This document shows, one piece after another, positions 3,490-45,673 of a stretch of 64,000 nucleotides of DNA. The stretch's first letter is position 1; the number at the start of each line of letters is the position of its first letter. A program made the translations under genes and the position numbers. Under the pieces are notes generated by a model that worked only from the letters and a program-made list of their open reading frames with translations, did not search any database and was not told the origin of the DNA. Source of the DNA: a virus (Duplodnaviria; Caudoviricetes); the IMG/VR virus record IMGVR_UViG_3300025018_000001. The stretch is one strand, 5' to 3'.

Positions 3490-3850
3490 ATTGTCGTGGG
3501 TGGGGAAAGGATTGTATAAGGACTTTAAATCCGAAGGAAGTTTTCCATTTAGTAGACGCTAATAACTACTTGTATAAGTATGGAACGGCTAGTCACCGCG
3601 TGTGTATCGGCACACAACAATCCTGTATTACCACAACTAGTATGGTTACTCTGCTAGTTGTGTAAAAATGAGGAGTAACTATATAAAGTTTTAGTTTATA
3701 GTACATAAGCGATAATGCCTTAAAACTTTATGAAATAACTTAATAAATGACGCGACATATAAACTAGCGTAAGTCTTTGGCATTAGAGGCGATTGGTAAC
3801 AGTAGCCACCCTGCGACGCGTGAACTGGGTGGCTACTAACCAATTTTTAA
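3490..3850 (+). ncRNA. candidate large structured ncRNA
   Basis: ORF-free; pairings AGGATTGT 3508/ACAATCCT 3617, CACAACTAG/CTAGTTGTG, ATAAAGTTTTA/TAAAACTTTAT, TAATGCC/GGCATTA; strong terminal hairpin AGTAGCCACC/GGTGGCTACT. Confidence 0.4.
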
Positions 3851-3953
3851 TATTTGTACTAAGTGGTTTATGTTTCATAGCCATATAATGGGCCGGGACT
3901 CTCATTAACACTGCTGAACACTTTGATAAACTATTAAATATGAACCACTTATT

Positions 3954-4187
3954 ATGAATATTAAAAAATTAGATCTACATGGTATTAGACATGCAGATGT
4001 TAAGCAACTAGTTATACACTTCATTGAAGATAACTGGGGGTCAGAGGAAGATTTTGAAATAGTTACAGGACATAGTGCTAACATGAAGAGTATAGTTCTT
4101 AATGTACTAGATGAATACAAACTTCCATATACAGTTGGAGAAATATTCAACTCACTGGCACCTAAAATAACATTTTGGATGAAATAA
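3954..4187 (+). CDS. stand-alone Smr domain protein
   Basis: LDLHG...IVTGHS motif. Confidence 0.75.
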   Translation: MNIKKLDLHGIRHADVKQLVIHFIEDNWGSEEDFEIVTGHSANMKSIVLNVLDEYKLPYTVGEIFNSLAPKITFWMK

Positions 4188-4307
4188 TGAAAATAAAAGA
4201 TGTATGTTACACATGTGGTTATTTTGACCCAGACCTTGGTAAAGGAAAACGTTATAAATGTTTTACAGATAAGTGTCCAGTTAAAACGTTAGGGTCAGCC
4301 AAAGTAA

Positions 4308-4592
4308 GTGCTTTACTACGGGAGCACAAAAAGAATGCCAAAAAATAATTATATAGTATACGATTGGCTAGAAGTAAGAGATGCTACTGATTCTTTGTAC
4401 AAAAGATTATTTAATGTAAAAATAGATAATTTTGTTAAAGATGTCTGTAGCAATGGGTTGCCACATGCAATGACCTCCGTATTAGCTGCAGCTTTTGTAC
4501 ATGGTTTAATCAAAGAAGATGCAGATGTTGATAAAGTTATTAATGCTTATTTACAGTTAGAAGATGTGGGATTTATCGGTGTGAAAGAGTAA
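4308..4592 (+). CDS. hypothetical protein
   Basis: ORF track. Confidence 0.5.
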   Translation: MLYYGSTKRMPKNNYIVYDWLEVRDATDSLYKRLFNVKIDNFVKDVCSNGLPHAMTSVLAAAFVHGLIKEDADVDKVINAYLQLEDVGFIGVKE

Positions 4593-4706
4593 AGATTTGT
4601 TGTGGTTAAAGATTATTTGTGCAGCTTGTGGCTGGGTTTTGTGGTCATTAATTAACTAACCTTACTAACTTACACTTAAAAGAGGTGACGTCATGTAACA
4701 TTTTAC

Positions 4707-4735
4707 TTGCATAATTAATAGAAATAGATTATAAT
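4707..4735 (+). promoter_or_regulatory. sigma70-type promoter upstream of the RNA cluster
   Basis: TTGCAT-17 nt-TATAAT. Confidence 0.7.
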
Positions 4736-4778
4736 AGAGGATATAAATGATAGTTAGAAGTAGTAGATAGTTTTAAAT

Positions 4779-4860
4779 TTCGTATTACAGGTAGTGTTAA
4801 ACATGGTTACTTCAATTGGTGAAAAATACACCTTGTTTGTTAGTTCTCCTGTAATACGAG
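4779..4860 (+). ncRNA. free-standing Y-RNA-like module RNA (F0)
   Basis: 12-bp terminal stem TCGTATTACAGG/CCTGTAATACGA; 22-nt strand TAGTGTT-AAACATGGT-TACTTC; partner ACCTTGTTT-GTTAGTTCT; small hairpin TTCA-ATTGG-TGAA. Confidence 0.7.
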
Positions 4861-4863
4861 TTC

Positions 4864-4947
4864 GCGGGGGTGGTGGAATAGGTAGACACAAGGGACTTAA
4901 AATCCCTCGGCTGCAATGCCATGAGAGTTCAAGTCTCTCCCTCCGCA
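4864..4947 (+). tRNA. trnL: tRNA-Leu(TAA)
   Basis: cloverleaf with long variable arm; AGGGA-CTTAAAA-TCCCT. Confidence 0.92.
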
Positions 4948-4960
4948 TACAATTAATAAT

Positions 4961-5033
4961 GCCGGTGTAGCTCAGTTGGAAGAGCGCCTCCCTTGTAAGG
5001 AGGATGTCACGGGTTCGATTCCTGTTACCGGCT
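4961..5033 (+). tRNA. trnT: tRNA-Thr(TGT)
   Basis: canonical cloverleaf; CCTCC-CTTGTAA-GGAGG. Confidence 0.93.
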
Positions 5034-5054
5034 CAGTATATAAAGGTGAATTCA

Positions 5055-5267
5055 ATGGGTGTTTTGAGTTGTGATAGACCTGGTTGCGATAACATAATGT
5101 GTGATAGGTATTCAGGTAAACATGGTTATTTATGTTGGGAATGTTTTAATGAATTGGTTGCTAAAAAAATACCTGTAAGCGAGTTCATGCGTACAATAAG
5201 AGCAGAAGAAGATGAGAATCCTTATACTGAAGAATTTTATAATGAAATTTTTCCAATACGAAATTAA
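5055..5267 (+). CDS. Cys-rich hypothetical protein
   Basis: ATG at 5055 (track start overlaps the tRNA); CDRPGC..CD..CWEC. Confidence 0.6.
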   Translation: MGVLSCDRPGCDNIMCDRYSGKHGYLCWECFNELVAKKIPVSEFMRTIRAEEDENPYTEEFYNEIFPIRN

Positions 5268-5270
5268 TTA

Positions 5271-5356
5271 CTGGGTGTAGCTCAGTCCGGTAGAGTACGT
5301 GCCTTGGACGCACGGAGTCGTTGGTTCGAATCCTACCTTAGGAGCAATATACCCAT
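5271..5356 (+). pseudogene. tRNA-Pro(TGG)-like element with displaced 3' acceptor strand
   Basis: D arm, anticodon arm CGTGC-CTTGGAC-GCACG and T loop present; acceptor partner TACCCAT lies 13 nt after the T arm. Confidence 0.6.
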
Positions 5357-5398
5357 AACAATAATAACAATAAGTGTATTTAAACAACAGGAGTTACC

Positions 5399-5995
5399 AT
5401 GTTTAGAATTGGTTTGGAGTTAGAAGAATTTTGTGTCAATGGAGAAAAAGAAGTTATCTTAATACCGAAAGAGTCAAATATACCACATGATGGTTGTGGC
5501 TGGCTCATCGAATACAGAAGTGATGCAAGTAAAGATATTGTTGATGCCGTGTTTAGTTTACGTGCACATGAGTATAAAACAATTGAAACGCTAAAGAAAT
5601 TTAATGTATCCGGCGCTAGAATACCTGTAATGAAACCAAATAAAACTGTACGTATGGCTGCAAGAAAACGGTTCATTAAAGGCCTTGTACAATTTAACAA
5701 CATTTATGGTCATCAGTGTCATAAGAATACTCTAGCTGAAGCAGTTGCTGCTATACATATTTCTGTAACCTTTAGTGTTGAAGGTAAACATGGTAGTATA
5801 AATAAAGTATGGGACTTTCCTGATTTTATACGTCATATGGATAAAAAATTTGCTGAAGAGATATCAGCTGCGAAAAGACGTCCAGGTTTTTATGAAATTA
5901 AAAGTGACGGTAGAGTAGAGTATAGATCTTTACCAAATAATGTTGATTTAACAAAACTGATGTATGAAGTAAATGCATATAAGTTTAAATATTAA
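5399..5995 (+). CDS. putative amidoligase / glutamine-synthetase-fold (COOH-NH2 ligase-like) protein
   Basis: IGLELE..DG.G.LIEYRS..HIS..R.PG.YE.K..G.VEYRSL pattern. Confidence 0.55.
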   Translation: MFRIGLELEEFCVNGEKEVILIPKESNIPHDGCGWLIEYRSDASKDIVDAVFSLRAHEYKTIETLKKFNVSGARIPVMKPNKTVRMAARKRFIKGLVQFNNIYGHQCHKNTLAEAVAAIHISVTFSVEGKHGSINKVWDFPDFIRHMDKKFAEEISAAKRRPGFYEIKSDGRVEYRSLPNNVDLTKLMYEVNAYKFKY

Positions 5996-6004
5996 AAGTT
6001 GTAA

Positions 6005-6139
6005 TGCTATTTAGTGTAACGGCAAGCATGCTAAAATCTCCTTATCTGTTAGTTCCCTTACGTAAAAGTAAGTGGTGTAAGATATGGTTACTTCATATCA
6101 TAAATGAGAAGACTGGTTCGACTCCAGAAATAGCTACCA
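6005..6139 (+). ncRNA. tRNA-Met(CAT)-like RNA with inserted Y-like module (element A)
   Basis: acceptor GCTATT/AATAGC + encoded CCA, D arm, T arm; ~60-nt insert 5' of TTCAT-ATCATAA-ATGAG. Confidence 0.75.
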
Positions 6140-6156
6140 AAAATTAAAATAAGGAT

Positions 6157-6304
6157 TTGATCTGTAGCTCAGTTGGCTAGAGCAGCTGTTTAAAAAAGCC
6201 TGTTTTTGTTTGTTCCTCCTTTCTCCTCCTTCGTTGTGGATGGTGTAGAAAACAGATACTTCATATGGCACAGCGGGTCGTCAGTTCGAGTCTGACCAGA
6301 TCAA
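6157..6304 (+). ncRNA. tRNA-like RNA (His-like loop remnant) with Y-like module in the anticodon loop (element B)
   Basis: TGATCTG/CAGATCA acceptor, GCTC/GAGC D stem, GCTGT/ACAGC anticodon stem enclosing ~80 nt, GTCAG-TTCGAGT-CTGAC T arm. Confidence 0.75.
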
Positions 6305-6314
6305 CAATAAAGTT

Positions 6315-6416
6315 TAAAAACATACCAGATACTAGGGTGCGGTTGGTTTCGAAAGCCAATGAATCTAGTAGAGAGCGGCGGAAAATACAGCGAGATGAGT
6401 TCGAGGTATGTTTTTA
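6315..6416 (+). ncRNA. candidate small structured RNA between elements B and C
   Basis: 12-bp perfect closing stem TAAAAACATACC/GGTATGTTTTTA; inner TACTAG/CTAGTA and TTGGTT/AGCCAA helices; GC-rich relative to flanks. Confidence 0.45.
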
Positions 6417-6429
6417 TTTAATATGTATA

Positions 6430-6563
6430 GCGGATGTAGCTCAGCTGGGAGAGCGCCTTCATCATAGACACTGTATTAGCTTATTCCCTATTTTAAATAG
6501 TGGTGTATAACACAGATACTTCAACCAAGAAGGAAGTCGATAGTTCAAGCCTATCCATCCGCG
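6430..6563 (+). ncRNA. tRNA-like RNA (Gly-like) with Y-like module in the anticodon loop (element C)
   Basis: GCGGATG/CATCCGC acceptor, D arm, CCTTC/GAAGG stem enclosing ~68 nt, GATAG-TTCAAGC-CTATC T arm. Confidence 0.75.
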
Positions 6564-6583
6564 ACTTTAAAAGGAAATATTAT

Positions 6584-6754
6584 ATGAGATACGATGAAAA
6601 TTTAACGAAAGAAGCTGTACATGAGTGGGCTATTAAACATTTTAAAGGGCCTATAGAAGTGTATGCATTTAGAAAAACTTTTGTAGCAGTATGCAAAGAA
6701 GAAGTTGTAAATGTCCACTGTGATACTGGTTCAGTTGAAGTGGAAGATAGATGA
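6584..6754 (+). CDS. small hypothetical protein
   Basis: ATG at 6584 after AAGGA; track start lies inside element C. Confidence 0.5.
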   Translation: MRYDENLTKEAVHEWAIKHFKGPIEVYAFRKTFVAVCKEEVVNVHCDTGSVEVEDR

Positions 6755-6759
6755 TATAT

Positions 6760-6832
6760 TGCGGGTTAGAGAAACGGCCATCTCGCTAGGCTCATATCCT
6801 GGAAACAACCGGTTCAACTCCGGTACCCGCTA
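6760..6832 (+). tRNA. trnM: tRNA-Met(CAT), initiator-like
   Basis: cloverleaf; 1:72 mismatch; CTAGG-CTCATAT-CCTGG. Confidence 0.85.
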
Positions 6833-6835
6833 AAT

Positions 6836-6926
6836 TTAAAACTTGAATGGTGAATAGTATGGTTACTTCTATAGACTCTTAATCTAACCAAAAACAACCT
6901 TACTAGTATGTTCCTTCAAGTTTTAA
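6836..6926 (+). ncRNA. free-standing Y-like module RNA carrying a Lys(CTT) anticodon stem-loop (F1)
   Basis: 12-bp terminal stem TTAAAACTTGAA/TTCAAGTTTTAA; TGGTGAA-TAGTATGGT-TACTTC; TAGA-CTCTTAA-TCTA; AACCTTACTA-GTATGTTCC. Confidence 0.75.
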
Positions 6927-6953
6927 TACTTGCTGATGATGTAGTTGATTTGT

Positions 6954-7027
6954 AACTAGGGTGGTGAATAGAACAGTTACTTCACTGTAAATGAAAAAAC
7001 GACTGTTCTAGTCTGTTCCCTCTAATT
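6954..7027 (+). ncRNA. free-standing Y-like module RNA carrying a Tyr(GTA) anticodon stem-loop (F2)
   Basis: TGGTGAA-TAGAACAGT-TACTTC; TTCA-CTGTAAA-TGAA; 10-bp helix TAGAACAGTT/GACTGTTCTA; GTCTGTTCC; ends ~20 nt before the ro60 start. Confidence 0.75.
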
Positions 7028-7048
7028 CGTGTTAAAGGAGAAAACACA

Positions 7049-8455
7049 ATGGCAAAGTTAAACAAAGTACCCCAGTCCCTTAGAACTCATAATGGTGCAG
7101 TAGCTAAACACATCTCCCCTGAAAACATGCTTAGACGTTCTATTATGTCTTGCTTGCTTTGGGAAAAAGAGTACTACGAAGATGGTGTTACTATCGCACA
7201 ACGAATCGAAAAATTAGTACCACTAGTTGACCCAATGGTTGTTGCAGACTTGGCGATACTTGCTCGTACTAATATGAACCTCAGGCATGTACCACTGTTA
7301 CTGGTAAACACCATGCTAAAGTTCCCTGAACACAAGAAATATGCACGAGAAGTAATAGGTAAAGTTGTTAATCGTCCTGATGAACTTGGCGAACTTCTTA
7401 CTATGTACTTTGGTGGCGGAACCAAGAATAAACCATTGGCTAACTCTTTAAAGAAGGGTCTTGCTGATGCGTTTTGTAAATTCAATGAGTACCAGTTAGC
7501 TAAGTACAACAGGGAAGAAGCAATAAAACTCCGTGATGTACTGTTCCTGACTCATGCAAAACCAGTAGACAACACTCAGGCAGTGTTGTGGAAAAAGCTT
7601 ATCGGTGGCTTCTGTAAAAATTGTGGTGAAAGTCACTATAGCAAAGATACAAAACGAGTAGAGCCTAAAACAGAGGCTTGTTCACAGTATGAAGAGCTTA
7701 CGTTGGCTACACCTGACACTTGGGAAGTCGCTTTATCTTCTGGTGGAAACAAGCGTGAACACTGGACAAGACTACTTAAAGAAGGAAAGCTTGGTGCACT
7801 GGCACTGCTTCGTAACTTACGTAATATGCTTACTGCCGGTATTGATAAACAACAAATAGCAGAAGCTTTTACAAAGACTGACCTTAGTAAAGTTCTACCT
7901 TACAGGTACATAGCTGCTGCAAAGTATGCTCCAGGTTTGGAAAATATACTGGAAGATGGTATGTTCAAGAGCTTGAAAAATGCACCTCGTATGGAAGGAC
8001 GCACAACGCTGCTTATAGATGTTTCTGGTAGCATGGATTGGGCCTTATCTGCTAAGTCTGATCTTAAGAGATTGGATGCTGCTTGTGGTTTAGCTATGCT
8101 ACTTCGTGAAATCTGTGAAGACGTAGATATATTCACATTCAGTACCAGGCTTGTGCAGGTACCACCAAGAAGAGGGTTTGCTTTAAAAGAAGCCATAGAG
8201 CGTAGTCAAGGTCATAGCTCAACTTACCTTGGTAGGTCTTTAAAAGAGTTACAAAGTAAAACAAAATGTGATAGACTTATTGTTATCACAGATGAACAAT
8301 CGAACGACGCCGTACCAGATCCAAAAGGTACTGGCTATATGATAAACGTAGCTTCTGCCAGAAATGGTGTTGGTTACGGTGCTTGGACTCATGTAGATGG
8401 TTTTAGTGAGTCTGTAGTACGTTGGATTCAGGAATTGGAAAATGATAAAAAATAA
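7049..8455 (+). CDS. rsr: Ro60/Rsr RNA-binding protein (TROVE + vWA)
   Basis: TROVE motifs (R.P.LLL, FNEYQLAKY, LRDVLFLTH, TWE..LS, ALLRNLRN, LPYRY) and vWA MIDAS DVSGSM...IVITDEQ. Confidence 0.93.
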   Translation: MAKLNKVPQSLRTHNGAVAKHISPENMLRRSIMSCLLWEKEYYEDGVTIAQRIEKLVPLVDPMVVADLAILARTNMNLRHVPLLLVNTMLKFPEHKKYAREVIGKVVNRPDELGELLTMYFGGGTKNKPLANSLKKGLADAFCKFNEYQLAKYNREEAIKLRDVLFLTHAKPVDNTQAVLWKKLIGGFCKNCGESHYSKDTKRVEPKTEACSQYEELTLATPDTWEVALSSGGNKREHWTRLLKEGKLGALALLRNLRNMLTAGIDKQQIAEAFTKTDLSKVLPYRYIAAAKYAPGLENILEDGMFKSLKNAPRMEGRTTLLIDVSGSMDWALSAKSDLKRLDAACGLAMLLREICEDVDIFTFSTRLVQVPPRRGFALKEAIERSQGHSSTYLGRSLKELQSKTKCDRLIVITDEQSNDAVPDPKGTGYMINVASARNGVGYGAWTHVDGFSESVVRWIQELENDKK

Positions 8456-8477
8456 GTTATGGTAGATGTGTAATACT

Positions 8478-8515
8478 AGTAGCTAGAAACTGGCAATTTT
8501 TAGCTACTTTAATTT
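8478..8515 (+). terminator. intrinsic terminator after ro60
   Basis: AGTAGCTA/TAGCTACT hairpin followed by T-rich tract. Confidence 0.6.
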
Positions 8516-8532
8516 TTGTGTAGTCAACATGG

Positions 8533-8561
8533 TTGACAATCATTGATTATGTGTGTATTAT
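8533..8561 (+). promoter_or_regulatory. sigma70-type promoter with inverted repeat over -35
   Basis: TTGACA-17-TATTAT; GTCAAC-ATG-GTTGAC palindrome 8523-8537. Confidence 0.65.
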
Positions 8562-8572
8562 GTATTTACTAT

Positions 8573-8712
8573 TTTAGTATTTCTGCTGGCAACAGATTTA
8601 CTAAGCTTTTTAAGACTGGAAAACAATATAACAAGATGGCCGTCCCTTTTATCGAATAGCTGCATCGCGCTGCGAAAGATCCGGGACCTCCTAGTTTGAG
8701 TTCGAAAGTTTA
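8573..8712 (+). ncRNA. candidate structured leader or small RNA
   Basis: hairpins TTAGTA/TACTAA, GTCCC/GGGAC, CCTAGTT/AACTAGG directly after the promoter. Confidence 0.35.
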
Positions 8713-8783
8713 AGCAACTAGGTTGAATGGGTAGGGGTGGGGATTTTTTATCATTTATTATTAATTTAAATATTTGGGGGTGT

Positions 8784-9110
8784 ATGGAAAGAGATCTTTG
8801 TGACTTGATGGCGAACGGTGGTGATGACTTTGGTAGCCAGTATGACTATAATTCAGATGAATGTACTTCAAGAGAATTTGGTAGTCGAGATCTAGGTACA
8901 GCAATGACTTTTGCAGAGATGCTCGCAGAAGAAGAATCATTGTCCGGTTTAATGGAGTCAATGGATGCACACGACCCAGAAGAATTGTTGGAAGCTATGG
9001 AAATAGCCCAAGACAAAGATAAAGTAACACGTGTTAGTCTTAAGAGTAGGAATACGGATGCTCCTGCTTTTGAACAATACGTTTATGCAAAATGTGGACT
9101 AGTTAGATAA
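8784..9110 (+). CDS. acidic hypothetical protein
   Basis: likely ATG 8784 after GGGGG SD. Confidence 0.6.
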   Translation: MERDLCDLMANGGDDFGSQYDYNSDECTSREFGSRDLGTAMTFAEMLAEEESLSGLMESMDAHDPEELLEAMEIAQDKDKVTRVSLKSRNTDAPAFEQYVYAKCGLVR

Positions 9111-9295
9111 TGCCTATTTACAATTACGAGTGTTCTGTCTGTAAAAAAAAGTATGAATCTATACAACCGATGGACACTAAAACAATACAATGTACTTGTG
9201 GTGAAACAGCTAAAAAAGTACCGTCTCTAACTAATTTTCAACTAAAAGGTGGAGGTTGGGCAAAAGATGGATACAGTAGCGGTGGTAAAAAGTAG
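9110..9295 (+). CDS. FmdB-family zinc ribbon protein
   Basis: MPIYNYECSVC...C.CG..A.K...F.LKG.GW..DGY. Confidence 0.85.
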   Translation: MPIYNYECSVCKKKYESIQPMDTKTIQCTCGETAKKVPSLTNFQLKGGGWAKDGYSSGGKK

Positions 9296-9584
9296 TTGCG
9301 AATTTGAAAATAATATGTTAAACTTACTTATCGGTAAGAGGTATTCAATAACACTATTCGCACATGACACGCCAATGGTTGGTACAATTAAATCAAAAGA
9401 AGCTAAGGATAAATCAAATCATACTTATTGGTTTTCTTGGTGGGATGAAGCACGAAAACAAAATGTAGGACATTACATATTTGATAGAGGTTATGCTAAT
9501 ACCAAAAGAACAATTGTATATAATCAATATAGTATACGTACATGTAAAGAAGTATGTCCTAACATTGACCCTAAAAAAGATTAA
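9249..9584 (+). CDS. hypothetical protein
   Basis: ORF; true start probably downstream of 9295. Confidence 0.5.
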   Translation: MEVGQKMDTVAVVKSSCEFENNMLNLLIGKRYSITLFAHDTPMVGTIKSKEAKDKSNHTYWFSWWDEARKQNVGHYIFDRGYANTKRTIVYNQYSIRTCKEVCPNIDPKKD

Positions 9585-9590
9585 GGAGAC

Positions 9591-10115
9591 GTGATGTTGC
9601 TCGTCGAAAAAGCAATGCTATTTGCTATTGAAGCACATAAAGGTACATTTAGAAAATTTGATGGTACAGCTTATATAAAACATCCTTTTTCTGTCATGGG
9701 GATTATGACTGAATACTCGGATGACCCTGCTGTACTAGCGGCTTGTCTACTACATGACACAGTCGAAGATATTGATGATATTACATTAGAAACAATGCAC
9801 GATACATTTGGTGAACGAGTGGCGAGTAACGTTTTTTATGTTACAGAAAAAGCTACTAAAGCTGACGGTAGTCGTAGAGTACGAAAAGAAATTGACCGTA
9901 TTCATTACAGTAAAGGTACAGTAGATTCACAAAATATAAAAGTAGCGGATATGTTGGATAATATTCCTGGTATTGTATTATGCGACCCTAAATTTGCACC
10001 TATATACTTAGAAGAAAAAAGACAGCTTTTATGGAGCTTAACAAAAGCAGTTCCAGATATAAAAGCTAAAGCAGAAAGACTAATAAACCAGATGTACTTA
10101 ATTCTAGGTAATTAG
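9591..10115 (+). CDS. HD-domain hydrolase, Mesh1/SpoT (p)ppGpp-hydrolase-like
   Basis: A..FA..AH.G..RK..G..YI.HP..V...LLHDTVED...KVADMLDN. Confidence 0.85.
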   Translation: MMLLVEKAMLFAIEAHKGTFRKFDGTAYIKHPFSVMGIMTEYSDDPAVLAACLLHDTVEDIDDITLETMHDTFGERVASNVFYVTEKATKADGSRRVRKEIDRIHYSKGTVDSQNIKVADMLDNIPGIVLCDPKFAPIYLEEKRQLLWSLTKAVPDIKAKAERLINQMYLILGN

Positions 10116-10121
10116 TTTATA

Positions 10122-10257
10122 GGCCTGTTAGCTCAATCGGTTAGAGCATTAAGCTAAACCTTATTAGCTAGTTCCCTATTTAATTATAGCGGTGTATAAT
10201 ATGGTTACTTCTCTTATGATAAAAGAAAGATGGTAGGTTCGAATCCTCCACAGGCCA
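10122..10257 (+). ncRNA. tRNA-Ile(GAT)-like RNA with inserted Y-like module (element D)
   Basis: GGCCTGT/ACAGGCC acceptor, D arm, T arm; insert with CGGTGTA-TAATATGGT-TACTTC before TCTT-ATGATAA-AAGA. Confidence 0.75.
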
Positions 10258-39864: not shown

Positions 39865-39936
39865 TGCCTCCAGAGGGAATCGAACCCCCGTCACACTATT
39901 TTAGAGGTAGTTGTTCCACCATTGAACTATGAAGGC
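39865..39936 (-). tRNA. amber suppressor tRNA (anticodon CTA)
   Basis: GCCTTCA/TGGAGGC acceptor, GTTC/GAAC D stem, loop CT-CTA-AA, GGGGG-TTCGATT-CCCTC T arm; 31:39 mismatch. Confidence 0.8.
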
Positions 39937-45423: not shown

Positions 45424-45430
45424 TGTTGTT

Positions 45431-45514
45431 TGGATGCGGTAGGACTCGAACCTACGAAGACCCTAAGGCCGGGAGATTTACAGTCTCCAGCAATTGCCAC
45501 TATGCGACACATCC
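45431..45514 (-). tRNA. trnY: tRNA-Tyr(GTA)
   Basis: GGAGA-CTGTAAA-TCTCC. Confidence 0.9.
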
Positions 45515-45521
45515 ATGTATT

Positions 45522-45595: not shown

Positions 45596-45600
45596 ATGTG

Positions 45601-45673
45601 TTGACCCAGAGAGACTTGAACTCTCGACCTCGGAGTTAAAAGCTCCTTGCTCTACCAACTGAGCTATGGATCA
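45601..45673 (-). tRNA. trnK: tRNA-Lys(TTT)
   Basis: GGAG-CTTTTAA-CTCC. Confidence 0.9.

Follow-up and report, generated by a model that had tools for sequence, protein, structure and literature searches.

Several features of bacterial Y RNAs have been described: they lie beside rsr, their terminal stem carries the sequence GNCGAAN0-1G, they contain YUAY and, in the case of YrlA, they include a domain that resembles a circularly permuted tRNA (Chen et al., 2014; PMC4201824). In M. smegmatis, one precursor is processed into the Y RNAs encoded upstream of rsr, which accumulate as free RNAs bound to Ro60 (PMC4201824). Y RNAs located upstream of a phage Ro60 gene are also known, from mycobacteriophages (PMC4201824) and from phiLo (PMC12135203). 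The only Y-RNA effector shown experimentally in bacteria or phages is PNPase (PMC4201824; Ro60-Yrl-PNPase complexes of phiLo, PMC12135203). Here, we analyzed the window, that is, the whole 64,000-nucleotide (nt) stretch of the virus record IMGVR_UViG_3300025018_000001 (Duplodnaviria; Caudoviricetes), in which two short plus-strand elements, F1 (6836-6926) and F2 (6956-7025), are located directly upstream of a ro60 (rsr) gene on the same strand. A previous sequence-only reading had taken them for Ro60-stabilised decoys or sensors of tRNA-cleaving defences, with Lys and Tyr anticodon loops, and had not assigned them to the Y RNAs. Our results suggest, with a probability of about 0.82, that F1 and F2 are stand-alone Y RNAs of a divergent YrlA/YrlB branch, members of a large family found upstream of phage and bacterial ro60 genes, and partners of Ro60.

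The analysis confirmed that F1 and F2 are real structured RNAs. When compared with 200 shuffled sequences, F1 had a fold z score of -3.5 (0/200 as good) and F2 one of -1.9 (6/200). In F1, a closing stem (6836-6847 paired with 6915-6926) surrounds the 5' strand GGUGAAUAGUAUGGUUACUUC (6849-6869), in which GGUGAAU and one strand of an inner helix (6855-6862) are followed by UUACUUC. The hairpin UAGA-CUCUUAA-UCUA (6872-6886; arms 6872-6875 and 6883-6886, loop 6876-6882) then presents the triplet CUU and is followed by an A-rich single-stranded tail, ACCAAAAACAA (6887-6897), which is conserved in the F1 lineage. The 3' strand (6898-6914), supported by covariation, consists of the inner-helix partner (6898-6905) and a G-N-N-N-GUUCC box (6906-6914). 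F1 orthologues could be identified in seven related loci (L163, L001, L164, L170, L172, L167 and L174). F2, which is supported by its fold and by orthologues as well, has a shorter version of the same layout, with a closing stem (6957-6961 paired with 7020-7024), a 5' strand at 6963-6983 (GGUGAAU, inner-helix strand 6969-6976 and UUACUUC) and a 3' strand at 7003-7019 (inner-helix partner 7003-7010 and the GUCUGUUCC box), the latter supported by alignment and covariation. Its hairpin UUCA-CUGUAAA-UGAA (6981-6995; arms 6981-6984 and 6992-6995, loop 6985-6991), whose 5' arm overlaps the conserved CUUC, presents the triplet GUA. Both hairpins are contained in the minimum-energy folds of the whole RNAs. 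With U as their second nucleotide and A as the sixth and seventh, the two loops show every feature of an anticodon loop (7 nt, pyrimidine 32, U33, purine 37 and A38), on stems of 4 rather than 5 base pairs (bp). No tRNA cloverleaf was called at 6836-7027 by ARAGORN or by the Rfam model RF00005, and F1 and F2 have no T, D or acceptor arm. The hairpins with their U33 and A37 equivalents and the missing arms were thus as the sequence-only reading had described them, and so was the 5-nt loop (UUCA-AUUGG-UGAA) of F0, a third stand-alone Y RNA of the window (4779-4860, plus strand; fold z = -5.1).

The presumed protein partner is encoded by the open reading frame at 7049-8455 (plus strand), a Ro60 orthologue with a TROVE domain (Pfam, E = 1.8e-22) and a Ro60-type vWA domain (vWA_Ro60, 26.0 bits, slightly below the 27.7-bit cut-off). 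The nearest solved structure to its product is Ro60 of Thermus phage phiLo (9KOP/9L5Y, E = 1.9e-27). The gap to the start codon is 24 nt for F2 and 123 nt for F1, in agreement with the usual location of Y RNAs on the ro60 strand and no more than 2 kb from the gene.

To date, more than 8000 Ro60 homologues could be found, of which 372 are in viral contigs. The 21-nt 5' strand of F1 and F2 occurs seven times in the window, three times in stand-alone elements (F0, F1 and F2) and four times inside tRNA-shaped genes, and the motif GGUG-N11-UACUUC was present in 45 of the 82 fetched ro60 loci. Of the 83 instances listed, 82 shared the strand of ro60, and most lay no more than 500 nt upstream of it. 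We aligned 31 stand-alone copies (alignment A2) and built a covariance model, R1, from them. The structure of A2 comprises an 8-bp inner helix in addition to the closing stem and GG/CC pairs; 91.7% of its cells are paired, as against 63.7% in shuffles and, after sliding of the partner columns, about 40-50%, and 14 of the 16 pairs change on both sides. R1 matched F0 (58.4 bits), F1 (54.5 bits at 6842-6920) and F2 (65.4 bits) with E-values of 1e-11 to 1e-14. In phage loci, 169 matches were obtained in 76 sources (75 phage loci and the window), with 1-6 per locus; every one of them shared the strand of ro60, and nearly all lay a short distance upstream of the gene. A further 181 matches, all on the plus strand, were found in 80 bacterial loci, mostly from metagenome-assembled genomes of Acidobacteriota and Alphaproteobacteria. 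The sequence-only reading was supported in that the RNAs are associated with Ro60, lack a tRNA body and carry an anticodon-type stem-loop at their tip. The hypothesis that F1 and F2 are functionless chance hairpins in the spacers of a tRNA cluster could appeal to their short and weak hairpin stems and to the fact that promoter-like sites at 4400-8800 were no more frequent than in shuffles. It is contradicted by the strong covariation, by about 350 R1 matches confined to the ro60 strand, with those of phages almost all just upstream of the gene, and by conservation across phyla, and can be regarded as extremely improbable.

In members of the family, the closing stem and the covarying 8-bp inner helix are set apart by an asymmetric internal loop whose two strands contain the conserved sequences GGUGAA and G-N-N-N-GUUCC, respectively. 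The apical module follows the order UUACUUC, hairpin and A-rich tract, the last of which is close to universal in the stand-alone members of A2. In bacterial copies, the Ro-type motif reads UGGUGAA (48), UGGCGUA (33) or UGGCGAA (32), and TTACTTC or ATACTTC is present in 108 of 144 copies. The terminal stem with its internal loop covaries, and its motif GGUGAAU has U in place of the published C, a position at which relatives in the model family read GGCGAA or GGCGUA. Since all three versions of the motif occur in bacterial copies of one family, GGUGAA appears to be a U-for-C variant of GNCGAA. UUAC, which corresponds to the published YUAY, is present in F0, F1 and F2. YrlA (RF02553) did not fit F1 and F2, which lack T, D and acceptor arms and have no RF02553 match at E <= 1, whereas tRNA-shaped members of related loci match this family over its full length with 31-39 bits (gathering score, 69). 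No Y-RNA family was found at Rfam gathering thresholds in 20 related loci. Considering the GGUGAA variant, the YUAY match, the RF02553 matches of the siblings and the lack of an Rfam match of their own, F1 and F2 are best filed as stand-alone YrlB-like Y RNAs.

This assignment agrees with the known YrlB-type RNAs (YrlB of S. Typhimurium and M. smegmatis, Yrn2 of D. radiodurans; PMC4201824), which are likewise short, located upstream of rsr or ro60 on the same strand, equipped with the Ro motif in the stem formed by the 5' and 3' ends, devoid of a complete tRNA-like domain and adjacent to tRNA-like sibling Y RNAs, with which they probably share a precursor. On the other hand, F1 and F2 read GGUGAA rather than GNCGAA, and their Ro60 binding is a prediction; their apex is an anticodon-type stem-loop with an A-rich tract, whereas YrlB and Yrn2 have a small pyrimidine-rich loop or a T-arm remnant there (PMC4201824). 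YrlA shares the logic of the Ro-binding stem and YUAY (UUAC in F1 and F2). However, YrlA 'lacks the anticodon loop' (Wang et al., 2018; doi 10.1101/312249) and its Ro stem extends from the position of the anticodon stem, whereas the family described here has a separate anticodon arm beside the Ro helix. The phiLo RNAs Yrl1 and Yrl2 (PMC12135203; 9KOP, 9L5Y) resemble F1 and F2 in being phage-encoded, directly upstream of a phage Ro60 gene and built as a stem, an internal bulge with the motif and a second stem. They were found via the CGAA motif, no anticodon-type hairpin is mentioned in the available part of that report, and their binding to Ro60 and PNPase has been shown, whereas F1 and F2 are known here from sequence. 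Finally, D. radiodurans Yrn1 has a 'potential anticodon arm', a 5-bp stem at the corresponding position, but its loop has 6 nt instead of 7 and no family-wide anticodon-loop signature was reported for it (PMC4201824). Compared with the literature considered here, three features appear to be new: a family with a separate anticodon arm beside the Ro helix, Y RNAs reduced to the anticodon arm alone, and a family-wide tRNA-like loop signature with a variable triplet.

Further information on the origin of the hairpin came from the tRNA-shaped siblings, four of which are encoded on the plus strand of the window: T1 (6005-6141), T2 (6160-6303), T3 (6431-6566) and, downstream of ro60, D (10122-10257), which has the anticodon-type loop AUGAUAA. 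In T1, the strands of the Ro module are reversed and UACUUC opens an anticodon arm with the loop AUCAUAA, which covaries with the arms in L001 and L002. More generally, a 5-bp stem that starts in CUUC of UACUUC and carries a 7-nt loop is present in these genes, followed by a 5-nt variable loop of the AGGUC type and a T arm; past the T arm, a capped acceptor-like stem and a D arm lead back to the Ro helix. In the fold of a representative from another locus (L011, 2579-2713; z = -4.65), the Ro helix was accompanied by an anticodon-type hairpin, a T arm, a capped acceptor stem and a D arm. Because the hairpins of F1 and F2 occupy the position of the full anticodon arm in these siblings, F1 and F2 appear to be Y RNAs that have retained only the anticodon arm of the tRNA-like domain. 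Stand-alone copies grade from such an arm to a 3-bp UUC/GAA mini-hairpin with a loop of 5-8 nt, as in F0, and the UUCA/UGAA stem of F2 bears at least seven other loops in other loci. The family thus shows that a separate anticodon arm can coexist with a Ro-binding helix and that some Y RNAs retain the arm only; it also fits the published idea that Y RNAs arose from tRNA transcripts.

It should be noted that the acceptor ends of T1, T2, T3 and D in the window are open (CCA is encoded in one of them) and that their reversed Ro module is capped by a hairpin, a layout that can be described as the unpermuted counterpart of YrlA. Beyond close relatives it was seen only in L047, in the form of a 125-nt Rfam 'tRNA' call at 2735-2859. 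A different element of about 100 nt with a long closing stem lies between two tRNA-shaped Y RNAs (window 6315-6416; L001 3405-3490); it is near-identical in the two loci and has no Ro module. ARAGORN also reported 'tRNAs' of 67-77 nt in several other loci (L103 2020-2096, L091 1595-1662, L107 1678-1744, L077 2833-2901 and L083 2153-2220). As the anticodon stems of these calls are of the Y-RNA type (UUCGC/GCGGG or UUCGA/UCGGG), annotation can evidently mistake parts of tandem Y RNAs for tRNA genes.

We then measured the anticodon likeness of the hairpin loops against shuffled sequences. Among 126 distinct stand-alone copies from phages, a hairpin with a 7-nt loop directly after UACUUC was found in 50 (19 +/- 3.8 in shuffles), a YU-NNN-R-N loop in 30 (2.0 in shuffles, maximum 6) and a CU-NNN-AA loop in 23 (0.18, maximum 2). 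Similar excesses of YU-NNN-R-N loops were observed in 94 distinct bacterial stand-alone copies (22; 1.5 in shuffles) and in 50 distinct bacterial tRNA-shaped copies (21; 1.4 in shuffles). The commonest loop length was 7 nt, and anticodon-like stand-alone examples came from 27 phage and 24 bacterial loci. The check that the sequence-only reading had named, whether the loops of homologues are anticodon-like or random, therefore came out in its favor, with YU-NNN-R enriched about 15-fold in phages and bacteria. Within 60 loops, C32 was present in 38, U33 in 39, A37 in 39 and A38 in 40, while positions 34-36 were variable; A34 was scarce (4 of 82 pooled loops). Positions 36 and 37 of the 82 pooled loops read UA in 36 cases, UG in 1, GG in 16 and GA in 6. 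When distinct loops only were counted, the ratio of A37 to G37 was 18:1 after U36 and 5:11 after G36 (Fisher p = 1.6e-4), and the real tRNAs of the same loci gave a similar 36/37 table. Identical loops were found on differing stems (CUGUUAA on five and CUGCUAA on four), and the 13-nt core AGA-CUCUUAA-UCU of F1 recurs unchanged in L078, despite differing helices and a Ro60 identity of only 48%. The anticodon likeness of the predicted loops is thus beyond chance. Since C32, U33, A37, A38 and the 36/37 pattern are kept while the triplet varies, the hairpin loop appears to be at least partly selected as a mimic of an anticodon loop. As a separate observation, triplets of the GUN type (Asn, His, Asp and Tyr, the queuosine tRNAs) accounted for 17 of the 82 anticodon-like loops pooled from L005-L162, as against about 5 if use were uniform, a count that includes related sequences; this excess could point to readers of the Tgt or colicin E5 type.

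Several observations weigh against the reading of F1 and F2 as Y RNAs with a selected anticodon arm. The Ro motif has U where the published GNCGAA has C, and a Rfam search of 3500-9500 at E <= 1 returned tRNAs only, with no Y-RNA family and F1 and F2 unmatched. Ro60 binding is predicted from position and motif similarity, and F1 and F2 are RNA species predicted from the DNA sequence. Taken by themselves, the 4-bp, A-U-rich hairpin stems have a folding energy of about 0 kcal/mol and would be marginally stable. About three quarters of the stand-alone copies have no anticodon-type loop, and the Y RNA nearest to ro60 shows an unstructured A-rich loop and no hairpin in relatives at 73%, 69/68% and 58% Ro60 identity, whereas the F2 loop is kept in those at 94%, 79% and 78%. 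Because most stand-alone members and the F2 orthologues at 73% Ro60 identity or less lack it, the hairpin would be dispensable for the role of the ro60-proximal Y RNA. The enrichment counts contain related sequences as well; shared ancestry inflates these counts without being able to account for them.

The Lys and Tyr identities assigned in the sequence-only reading did not hold for the family. Thirty different triplets were found in the 82 loops, led by GUU (9), GCU (8), UGA (7) and CAG (6), whereas CUU occurred in 3 and GUA in 2. The two identities are therefore neither conserved nor enriched: the F1 loop changes among relatives, and F2 orthologues lose the hairpin altogether. Members of the F1 lineage keep the stem UAGA/UCUA and the ACCAAAAA tail, while the loop reads CUCUUAA, CCGUUAA, CUAUUAA or UCUCCAA or has 9 nt. 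As had been stated, ordinary tRNAs for both amino acids are encoded separately on the minus strand of the window (ARAGORN): tRNA-Lys(UUU) at 45600-45673 and tRNA-Tyr(GUA) at 45430-45515. The F2 loop is identical to that of the phage's own tRNA-Tyr, the anticodon of the phage's own tRNA-Lys is UUU as against CUU in F1, and no tRNA-Lys(CUU) was present among the 99 tRNAs of the fetched loci. A possible pairing of the F2 triplet GUA with UAC of the conserved UUACUUC was considered and dropped, as no supporting evidence was found and most members carry other triplets.

In these circumstances, the specific proposal of the sequence-only reading, in which Ro60-stabilised F1 and F2 would offer Lys(CUU)- and Tyr(GUA)-like loops to tRNA-cleaving nucleases and so absorb or report them, appears quite unlikely. 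It is consistent with the finding that the loops are true look-alikes of anticodon loops that follow tRNA rules family-wide, and with the rapid triplet change that an arms race predicts and that is seen in the F1 lineage, where the stem is conserved. RNA-repair genes beside ro60, such as the RtcB ligase two genes downstream of ro60 in L174, and the HD-domain genes downstream in the window would also fit, and TROVE proteins of jumbo phages have been discussed as RNA-repair platforms with a tRNA-like partner (Iyer et al., 2021; PMC7824862). A related idea was put forward for YrlA, a Ro60-linked tRNA mimic whose tRNA-like domain might inhibit an SOS-induced anticodon nuclease by competition (Hughes et al., 2020; PMC7790460); that proposal concerns the elbow and body of a bacterial YrlA without an anticodon loop, whereas the mimic in F1 and F2 is the anticodon loop itself. 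The lack of Lys or Tyr enrichment argues against such a decoy, as do the absence of the hairpin from most family members and from F2 orthologues, and the weak 4-bp stems. The enrichment of anticodon loops is equal beside bacterial chromosomal ro60 genes and is thus not phage-specific. The tRNA-Lys targeted by PrrC has the anticodon UUU, whereas F1 mimics CUU.

On the basis of current results, the mechanism may be outlined as follows. F1 and F2 would be cut from a transcript that runs from tRNA-Met through F1 and F2 into ro60, the bulged GGUGAA/GUUCC helix would provide the Ro60 binding site, and the apical module might serve as the effector or adaptor side, by analogy with other Y RNAs, which tether or gate Ro60. 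A loop that obeys tRNA-specific rules and carries a variable triplet points to a partner that reads anticodon loops. Such a protein (a nuclease, modification enzyme or repair enzyme) is a genuine possibility for the partner of the hairpin, though one short of probable, and much the same could be said of a host exoribonuclease, for example PNPase, that is held via the A-rich strand with the hairpin as an accessory. That the hairpin is an evolutionary remnant without any partner is only slightly less likely than either.

A related reading, in which the A-rich tract links Ro60 to host PNPase or another exonuclease, as in the particles of Deinococcus and phiLo, and the hairpin is a vestigial leftover of a tRNA-like ancestor with no partner of its own, should be regarded as possible but rather unlikely. 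PNPase is the one effector with experimental support (PMC4201824; PMC12135203) and phiLo Ro60 is the nearest solved homologue. In stand-alone members, the A-rich tract is far more widely conserved than the hairpin, and decay would give just such a graded series, which leads from a full anticodon arm down to mini-hairpins of 3 bp (UUC/GAA) whose loops have 5-8 nt. However, a vestige would hardly keep C32, U33, A37 and A38 while its triplet varies, nor would identical loops be expected to recur on different stems. The presence of the 36/37 pattern in stand-alone copies of many lineages, at about 50% Ro60 identity, is also hard to obtain by neutral decay alone. It is conceivable, if unlikely, that Ro60 particles display interchangeable anticodon arms on a constant Y-RNA handle, so that the arm acts as a programmable bait. 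If so, the arm would bring Ro60 and exonuclease or repair enzymes to the readers of anticodon loops, or would hide tRNAs from them; these readers would include anticodon nucleases of defence systems or toxins and the enzymes that modify positions 34 and 37, and the fast triplet turnover in the F1 lineage would reflect an arms race.

With regard to transcription, the tRNA-Met(CAU) gene (6759-6833, plus strand; ARAGORN, and 50.5 bits with the Rfam tRNA model) ends 2 nt before F1 and probably shares a precursor transcript with it. No terminator-like or good promoter-like site separating F1, F2 and ro60 could be found at 4400-8800, where the sole convincing terminator-like site lies after ro60 (8478-8508), and a common tRNA-Met - F1 - F2 - ro60 transcript can be proposed on this ground. 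The same continuity, together with the ribosome-binding site in the 24 nt between the end of F2 and the ro60 start codon and the presence of a Y RNA at the ro60-proximal position in every relative checked, is compatible with F2, and perhaps F1, being part of the ro60 mRNA leader rather than a free RNA, with Ro60 binding its own 5' untranslated region and autoregulating translation or stability. We consider this improbable, given that the Y RNAs upstream of rsr in M. smegmatis accumulate as free, Ro60-bound RNAs (PMC4201824) and that family members are also found far from or downstream of ro60 (F0 at 4.8 kb, D at 10.1 kb) and in arrays of up to six; moreover, a leader function would be compatible with an additional role in trans.

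The occurrence of the locus in public data was also analyzed. When region 4700-8500 was compared with a phage collection by megablast, only 46 nt of tRNA-Leu matched, and no close sequenced phage was found. The stretch is present in aquifer and cold-spring metagenomes among public runs, and no RNA dataset was among those listed. A 157-nt contig spans F2 and the start of ro60 with one mismatch and one inserted A; the contigs come from two wastewater libraries labelled RNA-Seq (marked 'probably DNA') and from one RNA library, and cannot show expression, ends or strand.

Downstream of ro60, the window contains a zinc-ribbon gene and two HD-domain genes. The gene order after ro60 (window 8727-10115) is kept in L164, L167, L170 and L173 as small open reading frame, Zn_ribbon_8, small open reading frame and HD_4, and in the window a tRNA-shaped Y RNA comes after the HD_4 gene of this cluster. 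In L174, an RtcB ligase comes after ro60 instead. This gene context fits RNA repair or turnover. As F1, F2 and 20 related loci had no Rfam match above threshold and only tRNA-shaped siblings reached RF02553, below its gathering score, standard annotation would miss or mislabel these roughly 350 RNAs, along with many others expected beside the Ro60 homologues, of which there are more than 8000.

Some additional RNA genes should be mentioned. The tRNA-Leu(UAA) gene that follows F0 is uninterrupted in the window (4864-4947) and seems to be split in L001 (128-445), close to the anticodon loop, by some 240 nt that may represent a group I intron. A tRNA-like sequence at 5277-5337 scores 42 bits with the Rfam tRNA model (model positions 7-64) and has no ARAGORN call; its loop, CUUGGAC, resembles that of Pro(UGG). 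In L011, 73 nt located upstream of the Y-RNA array (2130-2202) match the ends of the Rfam transfer-messenger RNA (tmRNA) model with 65 bits and might be tRNA-like or tmRNA-like. Finally, ARAGORN identified a tRNA with the anticodon CUA on the minus strand of the window (39865-39936), an amber-suppressor type labelled Pyl, which may matter for the reading of stop codons.

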